A stretch of 36,444 nt of DNA from a virus: UHGV virus genome UHGV-0373079; one strand, given 5' to 3'. The position numbers and the translations under genes were made by a program. Positions 5,760 to 10,015 of this stretch are shown in pieces. The notes under the pieces were generated by a model. That model was not told the DNA's origin and made no database searches. It saw nothing but the letters and a program-made list of their open reading frames with translations. Positions within the stretch are counted from its first letter, which is position 1. Each line of letters opens with the position of its first letter.

Positions 5760-6665
5760 ATGCCAGTTATTTTAGATAGTAAAGATGTAAAAGCAATTGA
5801 CAAAGAATTTGCGGCAGGCTCTCAAGTATGGGAATTGCTAAAAGGTGGAGCGTCTGGTGTTACTGAAGCAGACTTTGTAGGGGCACGTGAAGTACGAATT
5901 AATAAAATGAAGGGTTTTACAGCAAGTGATTATAAACGTAATGAAGAAAACAAACGGAATAAAATTGATGTAAGTAAAGAAACTGTAAAGCTTGAAAAAG
6001 AACGTTGGATGGGCTATGACCTAGATTCATTAGATCAATCGGAAAATGCCAGCTACGAAGTACAAGCCGTCGTCGAAGAACACACTCGGTTAATTTCTAT
6101 CCCGGAAAAAGATCGTACAGCGATTGAGCGTTTATTAGAAGCAGCTTTTGCTGAACCAGCAGAAGATGATACGGAAGGAAAATACGTAGGGAAAACTGTT
6201 GTTGAAACAATCACCAAAGCGAATGCTTTAACATCTTATGATGAAGCTGAGGCTTATATGACAGATACTGAAGTGATTGGACCGTTTATTATGTTTGTAT
6301 CTTCCGATTACTATAAAGCATTAAAAAATGCTGATGGTGTATCCAAATCATTTAGTACTAACGATATCCAAATTTCAGGAATCAATCGTAAAGTTGAACA
6401 ACTAGACGGATCTGATGCGATTATCCAAAAAGTTGCTAAAAACCGATTACAAGTAGACCCAACGAAAAAAATTAATTATATCTTAGTTCCTTTAAACGTT
6501 TGTTCACCTTTGGAAAAATATAACTCAATTGATTTAATTCCAGCAGCGCAAGATCGTGATGGATATCGAGACACTGTTAAAGGATTAGATTACTATGATG
6601 CAATCGTAATTGAGAAAGCGCGTCCTGCAATTTATGTATCGTATGAAAAAGTAGGATCAAAGTAA
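5760..6665 (+). CDS. Major capsid protein
   Basis: 301 aa directly after the scaffold with a strong RBS (AGGAG). The assignment is by position and size. Confidence 0.7.
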   Translation: MPVILDSKDVKAIDKEFAAGSQVWELLKGGASGVTEADFVGAREVRINKMKGFTASDYKRNEENKRNKIDVSKETVKLEKERWMGYDLDSLDQSENASYEVQAVVEEHTRLISIPEKDRTAIERLLEAAFAEPAEDDTEGKYVGKTVVETITKANALTSYDEAEAYMTDTEVIGPFIMFVSSDYYKALKNADGVSKSFSTNDIQISGINRKVEQLDGSDAIIQKVAKNRLQVDPTKKINYILVPLNVCSPLEKYNSIDLIPAAQDRDGYRDTVKGLDYYDAIVIEKARPAIYVSYEKVGSK

Positions 6666-6724
6666 CATCCCCAACCGTAAAAAATGTTACTCCGACGGAA
6701 ACAGGGGCAATTATTGAAGTGGAG
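6647..6724 (+). other. -1-frame open segment overlapping the capsid stop, encoding ...VTSPTVKNVTPTETGAIIEVE; candidate frameshift extension (FN3 strand A-B-like)
   Basis: The segment has no start codon. It is paralogous to 8617-8709 with mostly synonymous codon differences. A Lys-stop context AAG_TAA allows a tRNA-Lys -1 slip. Confidence 0.45.
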
Positions 6725-6727
6725 TAG

Positions 6728-7087
6728 GTGCATAAGATGACCATTGAAAATCAACATTTAATCGAAGAATACAAAGACTTGTTAGACATTTCCGAAGAAA
6801 CTTTCACTCAAGATAAGTTAAAGCTTCAAAAGATATGGTCAATCACTGAAAAACAGCTTCTAGCAAAGCTTAAAGCAAAAAAAGTGCCAGAATCGTTAGA
6901 TTATATCGTACCTTCAATCGTGGTAAAGCGATACAATCGTATAGGACATGAAGGAATGAAACAGCATGCTCAATCAGAAGAAAAAATTGAGTATAACCTA
7001 AATGATTTTGCTGAATATCAAAGTGAAATTGACGATTATCTTGAAGAAAAAGGATTAGTCAGACAAAGAAAGGTGTCCTTTATATGA
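6728..7087 (+). CDS. Head-tail connector (gp6/gp15-like) protein
   Basis: 119 aa, first gene after the capsid in the head-tail joining block. The call is by position. Confidence 0.45.
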   Translation: MHKMTIENQHLIEEYKDLLDISEETFTQDKLKLQKIWSITEKQLLAKLKAKKVPESLDYIVPSIVVKRYNRIGHEGMKQHAQSEEKIEYNLNDFAEYQSEIDDYLEEKGLVRQRKVSFI

Positions 7088-7359
7088 GAACGACCTTTGA
7101 ATATTACGATAGCAAGCATCAATTAATTAAAAAGAATCTCGTTGGAAGTGTTACTGAGATTGGCACAGAAAAACAAATGACTATCTTTCCTAACATTAAG
7201 GAACAGATGGTCATTTTTCGTTTAAGAGATAGGGTAGTCATGCGTTCAGGATATCTTCAGTATTATGATAAAGAAGAAAAAAGGGACCGTAAATTTTCAG
7301 TTGTAAAAAATTTGCGGGTAAGTAAAGGTACGTCATGCTACGGAAGTGAATATCGATGA
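7084..7359 (+). CDS. Head-tail adaptor / head closure protein
   Basis: 91 aa, translationally coupled (ATGA overlap). The call is by position. Confidence 0.4.
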   Translation: MRTTFEYYDSKHQLIKKNLVGSVTEIGTEKQMTIFPNIKEQMVIFRLRDRVVMRSGYLQYYDKEEKRDRKFSVVKNLRVSKGTSCYGSEYR

Positions 7360-8104: not shown

Positions 8105-8638
8105 ATGGAAAAAGCAATTCAAGGTAAAAAAATTAAGTTAATGTTTCGACTAACACGTGAACGTGCGACAACAGCAGCGAAGTTGTTAGCTTTAGAAATT
8201 TCACACGAATATAAGTCAGAAACAAAAACAGATACGCAATCAACGAAGGATGGGAATGTTCCTACATCAGGTATGCCGTCAGCGTCTATTGAAATGGAGT
8301 TTTTGCGTACAGGTACAGAAACCTATGATATGTTGAAATATGCATACCGTCATGGCTTAGAAATAGATGTATGGCGCATCAACTTTGATAAAAAAGACGA
8401 GAAAACAGGAAAGTACGAGGCAGAATTTGGCACAGGGTTGCTTGATTCATTTGGAGATTCTGCCGAATCGGATTCAAACTCAAGTATCAAACCTACGCTA
8501 GTATTGAATGGAGATTTAGTTGAAGGTTGGGCGACGGTTGATTCTGATAATGAAGAATTAGCAAAAGCATTCTTCTATGATACTGTTGCAGGTGCGGAAG
8601 CAGAGGAACCAATTGAAAAATATCACCCAAAAAAATAA
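8105..8638 (+). CDS. Major tail (tube) protein
   Basis: 177 aa with an acidic C-terminus. It lies upstream of the Ig-like ORF and chaperone genes. It ends in the A_AAA_AAA_TAA context. Confidence 0.65.
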   Translation: MEKAIQGKKIKLMFRLTRERATTAAKLLALEISHEYKSETKTDTQSTKDGNVPTSGMPSASIEMEFLRTGTETYDMLKYAYRHGLEIDVWRINFDKKDEKTGKYEAEFGTGLLDSFGDSAESDSNSSIKPTLVLNGDLVEGWATVDSDNEELAKAFFYDTVAGAEAEEPIEKYHPKK

Positions 8639-8709
8639 TGGCCCCGAAAGTTGAAAGTGTTACACCTACAACCGACGGGGCAATCGTAAAGATTAAGGAA
8701 GGGGAATAG
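8617..8709 (+). other. -1-frame open segment overlapping the major tail protein stop, encoding KIMAPKVESVTPTTDGAIVKIKEGE; candidate frameshift extension supplying FN3 strands A-B
   Basis: A_AAA_AAA heptamer (8629-8635) sits directly before TAA. The peptide is paralogous to the capsid-end segment. Confidence 0.45.
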
Positions 8710-8711
8710 AG

Positions 8712-9176
8712 ATGCCCGATACGTATAGAATTTATAAAGGTAATGAAAAAGTAGCAGAAAGTGAGAATCCAATCACTCTTGCAGGTCTACAATCTAATAC
8801 TAAATATGAAGCTGGAGCATTTAAGATTGTGCGAGTAAAAGGAAATGAGGAATCTGAAAAAATTCCTATTTCTGAATTTACTACATTGGCCTCAATCGTT
8901 TCGGTAACGGAAGTCACTTTGTCTCCTAAAACTTCTACAGCTAACGCAGGGGTGGCTGGTAGCCGGCAGTTAACTGCAACAGTGACACCAGTAGAAGCGA
9001 CAAATAAAAAAGTATCGTATAAAATTGAGCCAGCAACCGAAGGGCTTGATGTATCAGATTCTGGAAATATCACATGGACAGAAACAGTACCAGCTGGTGA
9101 ATATGTAACCACGGTAACTACAGAAGATGGAAATAAAACAGATACAAACACATTAACATTAACTAAAACAGTATAA
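8712..9176 (+). CDS. Ig-like decoration protein: N-terminally truncated fibronectin type III domain (strands C-G) plus a Big_2 domain
   Basis: Its own strong RBS AAGGAAGGGG. YRIYKGNEK, ITLAGLQSNTKYEAGAFKIVRV and EKIPISEF match FN3 strands C, E-F and G. VTLSPKTSTANAGVAGSRQLTATVTP...VSYKI...G.ITW is a Big_2 signature. Confidence 0.7.
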   Translation: MPDTYRIYKGNEKVAESENPITLAGLQSNTKYEAGAFKIVRVKGNEESEKIPISEFTTLASIVSVTEVTLSPKTSTANAGVAGSRQLTATVTPVEATNKKVSYKIEPATEGLDVSDSGNITWTETVPAGEYVTTVTTEDGNKTDTNTLTLTKTV

Positions 9177-9187
9177 ATATAGCTAAA

Positions 9188-9216
9188 AGGGCAGCTTTTG
9201 ATAGTTGTCCTTTTTT
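9188..9216 (+). terminator. Weak rho-independent terminator
   Basis: AGGGCAGC / GTTGTCCT form an 8-bp stem with two G.U pairs, followed by TTTTTT. Confidence 0.3.
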
Positions 9217-9230
9217 AGGAGGACAAACAG

Positions 9231-9626
9231 ATGGCAGTAAAAATGAAACCTGTAGTAACAATTAACGAGAAAAAATATCCATTGAATTTTGGATTTAAAT
9301 TTTTAAATGAAGTAAAAGCAATAAAACCAGAAGTTGAAGAAGTAGATAATTTTGTGCAGTTGATAGGTGGAATCCAAGACGGAGATGCATTTGCCTTAAG
9401 AGAATTAATTCATGCTGCACTTGCTACTTATGATGATTTGACGACTGAAGATATTGATAATTATTTAGAAACGTCTGATGAGGTTCATAAATTATTTGAA
9501 AATTTTATGATTTTCTTAGAACAAGCACCTCTTACAGCACTTCGTACAAAGAAAGCGAAGGAAGCCATAGAGAAAATCGTGGATCTGATGGAGCAGATGG
9601 ACGTCAACCAAGCGCTCAGTCGGTAG
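9231..9626 (+). CDS. Tail assembly chaperone (gpG-like)
   Basis: 131 aa acidic protein directly upstream of the tape measure. It contains the slippery heptamer. Confidence 0.6.
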   Translation: MAVKMKPVVTINEKKYPLNFGFKFLNEVKAIKPEVEEVDNFVQLIGGIQDGDAFALRELIHAALATYDDLTTEDIDNYLETSDEVHKLFENFMIFLEQAPLTALRTKKAKEAIEKIVDLMEQMDVNQALSR

Positions 9627-10015
9627 AAGACCAAGAGCTAAGTTATGAAGATATAATCGTTGAGTGTTTCCAGTATTTTCCCAACATTACGTTAAAAGAG
9701 ATCGAGCGTATGACACCTTATGAGTTTAGTTTACGAACGAAAGCTGTAAATCTTCGAGCTATTAATGAGGAACGTAAGTTATACGTTAATGCGTTAGCCA
9801 ATCGAATTTTTACGGCTACTGATGATAAAGGTGAAAAATATATTTTTAATGATGTAAAAGATATTTATGATTATGAAAACTTGGAATTAAAAGTTAAAGG
9901 TAAATCTTCATCAGAAGAGCTTGAGAAACTAAATGAAATAACAGAAAATGCGCGTCGATTAGAACAAGCAAGAAAAATAGTTGAGGAAAGGAGGAAAAAA
10001 CATGGGACAGAGTAA
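9500..10015 (+). CDS. gpT-like -1 frame segment of the tail assembly chaperone (G-T fusion by programmed -1 frameshift at A_AAT_TTT, 9500-9506)
   Basis: The -1 frame is open from 9500, exactly at the heptamer AAATTTT, to 10015. The G frame stops at 9626. Confidence 0.55.
   Translation, partial: KFYDFLRTSTSYSTSYKESEGSHRENRGSDGADGRQPSAQSVEDQELSYEDIIVECFQYFPNITLKEIERMTPYEFSLRTKAVNLRAINEERKLYVNALANRIFTATDDKGEKYIFNDVKDIYDYENLELKVKGKSSSEELEKLNEITENARRLEQARKIVEERRKKHGTE

Follow-up and report, generated by a model that had tools for sequence, protein, structure and literature searches.

Frameshift-extended capsid and tail proteins are known to occur together in single phages, and PMC5009743 describes this for the Listeria phages A118, A500 and PSA and for the Lactobacillus phage A2. 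We here describe a related but distinct arrangement in the UHGV virus genome UHGV-0373079, a stretch of 36,444 nucleotides that was analysed as a whole and is called the window below. As for Cps-L and Tsh-L of A118, A500 and PSA and for gp5B and gp10B of A2, the capsid and tail genes of the window end in recoding sites that would give minor extended forms, and as in A118, A500 and A2 the shift at the capsid gene would be -1 and its site lies at the 3′ end beside the stop codon. The Listeria and A2 extensions are reported to be longer and self-contained (Ig-like, or HeH as found here), and that of the capsid differs from that of the tail; in the A118-like relative of the window capsid (L001), for instance, the sequence G_GGA_AAC_TAA is followed by a HeH domain in the -1 frame. 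In the window, in contrast, both proteins would receive the same domain fragment of ~20 residues, hereafter the tag, while the remainder of the domain is encoded as a separate protein, hereafter the catcher, by the open reading frame (ORF) that starts at position 8712. From profile matches and structure models, the tag appears to correspond to β-strands A and B of an FN3 domain whose other strands belong to the catcher, and we propose that the two probably meet on the virion. The initial annotation of this locus had called the shared peptide unusual and unexplained. Since dual recoding of capsid and tail alone is not unprecedented, that judgement has to be narrowed to the sharing of one and the same tag, which does go beyond the known cases. 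What the annotation missed is the identity of the tag with FN3 strands A and B, and this is the real explanation for a tag common to two unrelated proteins.

The acquisition of Ig-like domains by phage structural proteins via frameshifting is a recognised theme, in which the direction of the shift is apparently indifferent; examples are SPP1 gp17.1*, which gains an FN3 domain by a +1 shift at CCC_UAA, and T3 10B (PMC5009743). The window resembles this class in that an FN3/Ig-type module is placed on head and tail surfaces by a -1 or +1 shift at the 3′ end, and two of the related loci, in the Lederbergia prophage L226 and the Enterococcus phage LY0322, use the SPP1-type CCC_stop +1 site. The class differs in that a whole domain is fused covalently, whereas the shifted frames of the window hold only 21-24 residues, or two strands, before a conserved stop. 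The primary studies of frameshift-extended capsid and tail proteins with appended Ig-like domains are reportedly those of Fraser 2006, Dorscht 2009, Zimmer 2003 and Auzat 2008. Among the loci gathered here, L094-L104 (e.g. L094 5990-6270) carry GGGGGAGTAA at the end of a long upstream ORF and pass from it by a -1 shift directly into a Big_2/He_PIG-type Ig-like domain, the one that ORF 8712 carries as its cargo. Judged by sequence, they may plausibly represent the unsplit, classical version and would provide an evolutionary route from the classical arrangement.

A direct homologue is found in Enterococcus phage phiEf11. Its capsid protein, ORF10, was seen by Stevens et al. (2016) as two bands of 38-39 and 41-43 kDa in sodium dodecyl sulfate polyacrylamide gels, and the authors proposed that a -1 shift at AAAAAAA extends it by 21 residues, noting a downstream stem-loop of -20.1 kcal/mol and calling the shift speculative because extension peptides had not been found (PMC5221750). 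At the AAAAAAA-TAG that closes the capsid gene, a -1 shift would add FKKIEAPKVESVIPTTDGASIVLS*; the capsid itself (Phage_cap_E) is unrelated to that of the window. In addition, phiEf11 has the same peptide in frame at the end of its tail protein ORF15, and ORF16 is the FN3 remainder, two points that are not made in PMC5221750. ORF15 ran at 28-30 kDa against a predicted 21.5 kDa, which the authors left without explanation (PMC5221750; L105 3892-4485); a covalent adduct with the 16-kDa catcher would be larger, and the difference is probably due to anomalous migration. In phage vB_EfaS-271, the 7-kDa product of the gene following the capsid gene was detected by mass spectrometry with 94% coverage (PMC7503890). 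Because of its position and size, and because LY0322 is among the closest relatives of that phage (PMC7503890), the product can by analogy be read as a bare catcher like LY0322 gp57. Neither paper links these observations.

Tag junctions in the window and in relatives

The features of the capsid junction are:

5760-6665, plus strand: major capsid protein gene, 301 residues, frame 0, with TAA at 6663-6665
6657-6665, plus strand: proposed -1 shift site UCA_AAG_UAA, a putative site with a single-tRNA A_AAG beside the UAA (6659-6665)
6662-6727, plus strand: capsid tag in the -1 frame, VTSPTVKNVTPTETGAIIEVE followed by TAG, 21 residues
6661-6715, plus strand: weak, interrupted hairpin over the capsid tag, with AGUAA/UUAUU, CCCC/GGGG and CCGU/ACGG pairings

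The capsid ORF terminates in ...GGA TCA AAG TAA, and the -1 frame is free of stops between 6647 and the TAG at 6725-6727, reading KSRIKVTSPTVKNVTPTETGAIIEVE*, with ATG, GTG and TTG all absent until the last three codons; the coordinates and sequence of this start-less segment are as first described. Here the tRNA-Lys would re-pair from AAG (6660-6662) to AAA (6659-6661) with the stop codon in the A site. In the closest viral contigs (L002-L004), which are 85% identical to the window in the capsid and 94% in the tube protein, the capsid end continues after TCAAAGTAA with the -1 peptide FKVSAPTVKKVTPTADGAVIEVE, also written VSAPTVKKVTPTADGAVIEVE. Counted by eye, 7 of the 22 aligned codons of the capsid tag differ between the window and these contigs by synonymous changes only. 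The TCAAAGTAA sequence itself is unchanged in the window, in the independent Logan assembly ERR12540869 (L229) and in L002-L004, while neighbouring codons vary.

The features of the tail tube junction are:

8105-8638, plus strand: tail tube (major tail) protein gene, 177 residues, with TAA at 8636-8638; Pfam Phage_tail_2, E 4e-13
8629-8635, plus strand: canonical -1 slippery heptamer A_AAA_AAA, abutting the stop codon
8635-8709, plus strand: tube tag in the -1 frame, IMAPKVESVTPTTDGAIVKIKEGE followed by TAG at 8707-8709, 24 residues
8641-8681, plus strand: stimulatory hairpin GCCCCG...CGGGGC, 5 nucleotides past the heptamer, -20.1 kcal/mol, z -2.2

The tube ORF ends CCA AAA AAA TAA, and the -1 frame read through the junction gives ...KKIMAPKVESVTPTTDGAIVKIKEGE*. 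In L002-L004 the tube tag continues the frame of the tube gene, and the shift can be placed on the A run because the shifted product of the window (...YHPKK/IMAPKVES) is colinear with the continuous protein of these contigs (...PKTIEVPKVES). Since L229 is identical to the window at both junctions, the frame changes are not sequencing artefacts, and a sequencing error at the run of seven As was rejected on this ground. A separate small ORF from the ATG at 8638 was likewise rejected, as it is without a Shine-Dalgarno sequence and its Met is not conserved (IEVPK and GKVDSP in relatives). The predicted tryptic peptides of the -1 products are VTSPTVK and NVTPTETGAIIEVE for the capsid and IMAPK and VESVTPTTDGAIVK for the tube.

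The gap-free alignment of the capsid-end and tube-end peptides, on which the initial annotation was built, was reproduced, and a six-frame motif scan of the window returned these two copies only. The number of identical residues, given there as 10 of 18, came to 9 of 18 on recounting; the six codon pairs said to differ only synonymously are exactly those listed, the other three identical residues being encoded by the same codons. Purifying selection on the peptide, deduced at first from this single pair, is also seen across 46 distinct tag cores as an excess of third-position changes (pairwise differences at codon positions 1/2/3 of 6284/4947/11199), a count that is partly circular because the tags had been selected by peptide motif.

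In order of retrieval route, via the capsid, via the downstream ORF and via a tag-only DNA pattern, ~230 loci were gathered. Their 4.2 million six-frame residues contained 113 distinct motif matches, 98 of which directly adjoin the end of a long ORF; as counted by motif, 85 of these are in the -1 frame, 12 in frame and one in the +1 frame; more +1 cases occur at CCC_TAA/TAG/TCG in the Lederbergia prophage L226, LY0322 and Staphylococcus phage 187. The tagged ORFs are capsid-sized (279-376 residues) or tube-sized (150-207 residues) and belong to phages of Enterococcus and related Firmicutes. Because the same peptide of ~20 residues directly follows capsid- and tube-sized genes at ~100 junctions, its presence is not due to chance. 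The search of other phages for the peptide at capsid and tail gene ends, which had been suggested at the outset, thus yielded ~100 distinct junctions, and one tag on both head and tail tube proteins is a situation seen in many phages. Every tabulated -1 junction abuts the zero-frame stop (CGGGGGAGTAA, G_GGA_AAG_TAG, A_AAA_AAA_TAR, TCAAAATAA and TCAAAGTAA); the C_CCA_AAA site lies one codon upstream of the stop, and GGGGG is among the family-wide slip sites. The overlapping -1 frame is conserved as coding sequence across the relatives, and the linkage varies between -1, +1 and in frame while the peptide is kept, a pattern hard to understand unless the peptide is made. Access to the tag through recoding out of the upstream frame, as had been proposed, accords with the shift sites abutting the stop and with the colinearity of the tube product and its in-frame relative. 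The tagged capsids span at least four Pfam capsid families as well as capsids without family assignment, so that the tag, to go by these sequences, is a mobile module and not the quirk of one lineage.

The frameshift-dependent tags carry an embedded CCCC/GGGG hairpin that the in-frame tags are without. For the conserved Gly, 81 of 86 frameshift-dependent tags use the codon GGG, versus only 2 of 12 in-frame tags, the codon of the in-frame tags otherwise being GGT or GGC, and the mean minimum free energy (MFE) of the 68-nucleotide region is about -20 kcal/mol in the former versus -10.5 kcal/mol in the latter. The capsid junction of phiEf11 has the same hairpin as the window tube (-19.9 kcal/mol). 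Retention of the hairpin only where slippage is needed is good evidence, at the level of sequence comparison, for programmed frameshifting, and it speaks against an RNA element alone accounting for the conservation, as the in-frame tags keep the peptide and lose the hairpin. We regard it as very likely that the tags of this family are translated via programmed frameshifting; for the capsid site of the window this would be somewhat less likely than for the family. The core interpretation of the initial annotation is in this sense supported.

Some further observations concern individual members of the family and their relatives. In LY0322 (L228; 3860-3930 and 6245-6315), a virulent phage of the Efquatrovirus type that is used in therapy studies, CCC_TAG closes the capsid gene as well as the tube gene, and the same tag peptide, STPPVVGQVTPAETSATIEL[S/T], is read in +1 after each of them. 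The two tag sites are nearly identical over ~64 nucleotides, which suggests gene conversion or very strong joint constraint. In Lactobacillus LL-H/mv4, which has a related capsid, an FN3 tag is absent after g34 and after the tail gene. More distant relatives of the window capsid (64-69%; L007-L021 and L108, e.g. L008 4870-5050, and L001 4840-5016), among them a Listeria phage of the A118 type and a prophage of Ca. Enterococcus testudinis, carry another -1 extension, a HeH/LEM domain of 50-55 residues (Pfam PF12949, 37-40 bits). It follows either C_CCA_AAA with the hairpin CCCCGGAAGAACCGGGG or G_GGA_AAC_TAA, and in L001 it is annotated as a separate hypothetical gene.

Tag and catcher as probable parts of one FN3 domain

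The gene that follows the tube tag has these features:

8695-8704, plus strand: Shine-Dalgarno sequence AAGGAAGGGG of ORF 8712, inside the last tag codons; AAGGAGG at the same place in relatives
8712-9176, plus strand: catcher gene, 154 residues; residues 1-62 match FN3 strands C-G, with strands A and B missing
Catcher residues 63-154: Ig-like domain, weakly of Big_2/He_PIG type

Homologues of the catcher are annotated as "phage tail protein", "major tail protein" or "Ig-like virion protein". A search returned 61 of them, and the position of the Met is the same in the 15 that were aligned and in the 10 listed; the members aligned or read begin with Met followed by the pattern x-x-[YF]-x-[IV]-Y-K-G. 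In the Pfam fn3 alignment, residues 4-49 of the catcher family correspond to positions 33-82 of the 84 of the hidden Markov model (HMM), and since the alignment starts at HMM position 33 the family begins at strand C. When 105 distinct catchers were compared with a model of the catcher N-domain, nearly all started at HMM position 1-2, with an in-frame stop no more than 8 codons upstream. In the window, which has a single match to this model, the in-frame stop is at 8694-8696, 6 codons upstream. With a stop only few codons upstream, the catchers cannot encode strands A and B themselves.

The missing strands are those which the tag appears to supply. The tags of the Lederbergia prophage L226, PVNLNASETTSDSTKLTWD and PANVTANSTDTTVTLAWG, include the hallmark Trp of FN3. 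The catcher of L226 alone matches Pfam fn3 (PF00041) at positions 40-83 with 28 bits; when it is joined to the capsid tag or to the tube tag the match extends over positions 2-83, with 36.7 and 34.3 bits, respectively (cut-off 25). A phmmer search with the tag of the window plus the catcher N-domain against 1.84 billion proteins found intact FN3 repeats that align across the junction (query 2-84). One of them, P0062, begins with a domain of the catcher type, after which come two complete repeats that open with PPEVESVVPTDTTATITM. The other matches begin for the most part at query position 25-29, which is their own residue 1-3, that is, at the junction. This came from the exhaustive phmmer search; a word-index protein search with the fused 83-residue query gave zero matches.

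Structure prediction points in the same direction. The AlphaFold2 model of the tube tag joined to ORF 8712, made without an alignment, is a seven-strand sandwich with a predicted local distance difference test score (pLDDT) of 76-92 over residues 1-85; residues 1-20 score 87-88 and form strands at 5-11 and 15-21. Joined to ORF 8712, the capsid tag is also modelled as strands A and B of an FN3 sandwich. For both models, the top Foldseek matches are FN3 domains of NCAM, neogenin and fibronectin.

Tag and catcher also go together in genomes. Of 113 tag-bearing loci that had been retrieved by the tag DNA pattern alone, 107 contain a catcher, and most loci have two tags, on capsid and tube, and one catcher. 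The six loci without a catcher are mostly short or have the tag at the end of the locus; L174 is unexplained. In a set of 52 loci, the catcher stands in one of several frames relative to the tag (0, -1 or -2), the stop codon and the spacer (2-20 nucleotides) vary as well, and a Shine-Dalgarno sequence and a conserved ATG lie between the two. Many phages have the catcher gene behind the capsid gene and not behind the tube gene. On account of all these features, a second recoding event that would join tag and catcher is excluded.

What follows the catcher domain is exchangeable and may be nothing at all (proteins of 59-66 residues), HeH, Big_15 plus HeH, or one or two Ig-like domains. Among the closest relatives, here L002, L003 and L194, L002 encodes a bare 60-residue FN3(C-G) protein (6926-7110) and then, from ~7150 onward, a catcher paralogue with Big_15 and HeH (190 residues), and another form of catcher is fused to a weak HeH match (102 residues; L003 6926-7235). 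By these comparisons, the cargo is swapped even among the closest relatives while the tag system stays. The catcher N-domain furthermore matches 175 Staphylococcus phage records. In Staphylococcus phage Sb-1 (L107, Kayvirus), a protein similar to that of ORF 8712 (8992-9504), annotated "major tail protein", adjoins a putative sigma factor, and the catcher-like matches in Kayvirus lie in a non-structural region far from the tail genes.

Proposed docking in trans and its rivals

The arrangement can be put together as follows. A fraction of the ribosomes that reach the end of the capsid gene would slip by -1 on UCA_AAG, with UAA in the A site, and add the 21 residues VTSPTVKNVTPTETGAIIEVE, and ribosomes ending the tube gene would slip by -1 on A_AAA_AAA, aided by the hairpin, and add the homologous 24-residue peptide. 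Each tag would constitute FN3 strands A and B, and the N-terminus of the ORF 8712 protein strands C-G, followed by its Ig-like domain. The catcher would then dock non-covalently, by fold complementation, on those capsid and tube subunits that bear a tag, since its two missing strands would come from the tag. A single gene for an Ig-like decoration protein would thus be enough for head and tail alike, and the efficiency of frameshifting would set the occupancy. We consider this whole chain, from frameshift-made tags to docking in trans, to be probable on the basis of the sequences and models; for the formation of a complex in trans, in particular, we infer strongly from the same material. Drawing on the Enterococcus and Bacillaceae prophages and phages examined, including the therapeutic-type Efquatrovirus, and on Staphylococcus phage 187, it also seems rather likely that many Firmicutes siphophages use such a natural, non-covalent tag/catcher system, in which frameshifting, or in certain phages in-frame fusion, puts FN3 strands A and B on a tunable fraction of capsid and tube subunits and a C-G protein with exchangeable cargo docks there.

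In chaperone-usher pili, an incomplete Ig-like sandwich is completed by a donated strand (G), a process known as donor-strand complementation. The likeness to these pili and to the engineered split Ig-like pairs SpyTag/SpyCatcher and split FN3 is one of mechanism only, a peptide tag serving as docking site, and homology is not claimed. The pili donate a single strand, but the tag would contribute two, the N-terminal strands A and B; isopeptide chemistry of the SpyTag type is not evident here, and the phiEf11 bands do not fit a covalent adduct. T4 Hoc and T5 pb10 are, as the catcher would be, separately encoded and dispensable-looking Ig-like surface proteins, but they bind the mature lattice by a dedicated domain, without a frameshift-made tag, and the tube is not decorated by the same protein. 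No description of phage decoration proteins docking by split FN3 or strand complementation was found, PMC13370021 included, in a search that had most subscription journals outside its reach. Frameshift extensions are known, and split-FN3 docking could be a new attachment principle if the complex is demonstrated. It would explain why two unrelated virion proteins carry the same recoded peptide, why the small "major tail protein" or "Ig-like virion protein" of hundreds of phage genomes starts in the middle of an FN3 domain, and why short and seemingly pointless frameshift extensions persist. It would also represent a new principle of assembly, with a split domain as docking device and recoding efficiency as control of stoichiometry, and offer a small, genetically encoded handle for the display of cargo on heads and tails of therapy-relevant Enterococcus and Staphylococcus phages. 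In current annotations, the ~100 distinct junctions of capsid and tail genes are wrongly treated as intergenic.

Several points weigh against this proposal. At the capsid junction of the window the slip site is non-canonical and the stimulator weak, which means that the efficiency could be very low: the hairpin over the capsid tag has an MFE of -9.5 kcal/mol and a z-score of +1.45, no better than shuffled sequence, and occupies the same position as the strong CCCC/GGGG hairpins of relatives (-24.6 kcal/mol and z -3.4 in L002). In the tube gene, the A7 run could also allow slippage during transcription, which might contribute in place of ribosomal slippage. The frameshift products of the window are predictions, and in phiEf11 the extension peptides were not detected by the authors (PMC5221750). 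For the window's own fusion the Pfam fn3 match is sub-threshold and covers strands C-G only (E 0.019), so that the full-length match holds for the family, and for the window by homology. The model of the capsid-tag fusion is moderately confident (mean pLDDT 68, one of five models), and both models are covalent fusions, which probe compatibility and not binding in trans. The capsid and tube tags of one phage are slightly more similar to each other than those of different phages (0.638 vs 0.598, p ~0.007), a difference that is confounded by shared ancestry.

The tags might be made by frameshifting and yet act alone, by stabilising capsomers or tube rings or through another partner, with the Ig-like protein being independent of them. 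Short, domain-less frameshift extensions do exist, T7 10B not being Ig-like (PMC5009743), considerable variation in tag sequence is tolerated within one phage group, and the binding of tag and catcher is here a prediction. Tags acting alone would, however, leave unexplained why the catcher starts exactly at strand C, why tag plus catcher give a full-length fn3 match, why the two co-occur in 107 of 113 loci and why intact repeats of the same family contain a tag-like A-B segment, and we consider this explanation unlikely, if worth keeping in mind. Alternatively, the segments could be decaying, now untranslated remnants of a once complete FN3/Ig extension appended by frameshifting. The absence of a strong stimulator at the capsid site of the window would fit such decay, and truncation is conceivable given that L094-L104 fuse the same Ig-like domain by a -1 shift. 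The length of the tag and the position of its stop are nevertheless conserved over ~100 distinct junctions in different capsid families, in-frame tags are translated by definition, and the third-position excess, the conserved slip sites and a hairpin retained only where a frameshift is needed speak the same way, which makes decay very improbable. It is still less credible, and indeed extremely improbable, that an RNA element such as a terminator, an attenuator or a translational-coupling hairpin is what is conserved instead of the peptide. A CCCC/GGGG hairpin does lie within most copies, but in-frame tags retain the peptide without it, synonymous changes dominate at the conserved residues, and the +1 variants (LY0322, L226 and phage 187) differ in nucleotides and share the FN3 A-B pattern.

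Two further alternatives bear on the tube gene. The tube protein, the tag and ORF 8712 could be joined covalently by a second recoding, either another -1 shift or a hop over the TAG at 8707, in which case the capsid copy would be irrelevant. In the window the frames do step by -1 and again by -1 (tube 2, tag 1, ORF 0), and GAA-TA-GAG could allow a hop of tRNA-Glu. A double recoding or such a hop was rejected, as the frame, stop and spacer between tag and catcher vary among relatives (over 52 loci) and a Shine-Dalgarno sequence precedes the conserved ATG. The landing codon, moreover, is not conserved (TAG TT ATG in L002), and the many phages with the catcher after the capsid gene could not be accommodated; we give this reading next to no credence. 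The other alternative, which has a small chance of being correct, is that the -1 product of the tube gene arises from slippage of RNA polymerase on the A7 run, which would insert an extra A, and not from ribosomal slippage. Homopolymeric A runs support transcriptional slippage in bacteria, and the protein outcome would be identical. Seven As are, however, short for efficient transcriptional slippage, a hairpin 5 nucleotides downstream is typical of ribosomal -1 frameshifting, and most sites of the family are non-homopolymeric (G_GGA_AAG, C_CCA_AAA and CCC_TAA). The question is in any case one of mechanism, and the proposed function of the tags in docking is unchanged by it.

Gene context

The 36.4-kb window constitutes a complete temperate siphophage genome, with the following gene sets:

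Up to the tail tube: large terminase, SPP1-type portal, MuF-like protein, scaffold, capsid, connector proteins, tail tube
Rest of the gene set: tail assembly chaperone, tape measure, Tal, GH25-LysM lysin, integrase, replication genes

The capsid gene is flanked by the scaffold gene and by head-tail connector genes, and in tblastn searches its product matches the major capsid proteins of Listeria LP-LmcIH1-8 (63%), of Latilactobacillus and Enterococcus phages and of Lactobacillus LL-H/mv4 (g34). Megablast of the region against GenBank phages gave zero matches. A scan of genome contigs with the capsid returned a single distant match, to Ca. Enterococcus testudinis (69%), and because it is the only one the host can be assigned only loosely, as an Enterococcus-like Firmicute.

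Two other overlaps in the window were noted. Within the gene for the tail assembly chaperone (9231-9626; Pfam Phage_TAC_12), the -1 frame is also open and continues into the ORF at 9710-10015. The overlap extends over ~9560-9710 (within 9231-10015) and no slip site was identified there; it would correspond to the usual G/GT-type -1 frameshift of siphophage chaperones and would make a third recoding site in the genome. The capsid tag, finally, shares its frame with the next gene, that of a head-tail connector (ATG at 6737), with TAG GTG CAT AAG in between (6725-6740). The shared frame is probably a coincidence, with a one-in-three chance of occurring, and the frame of the connector differs in L002-L004.

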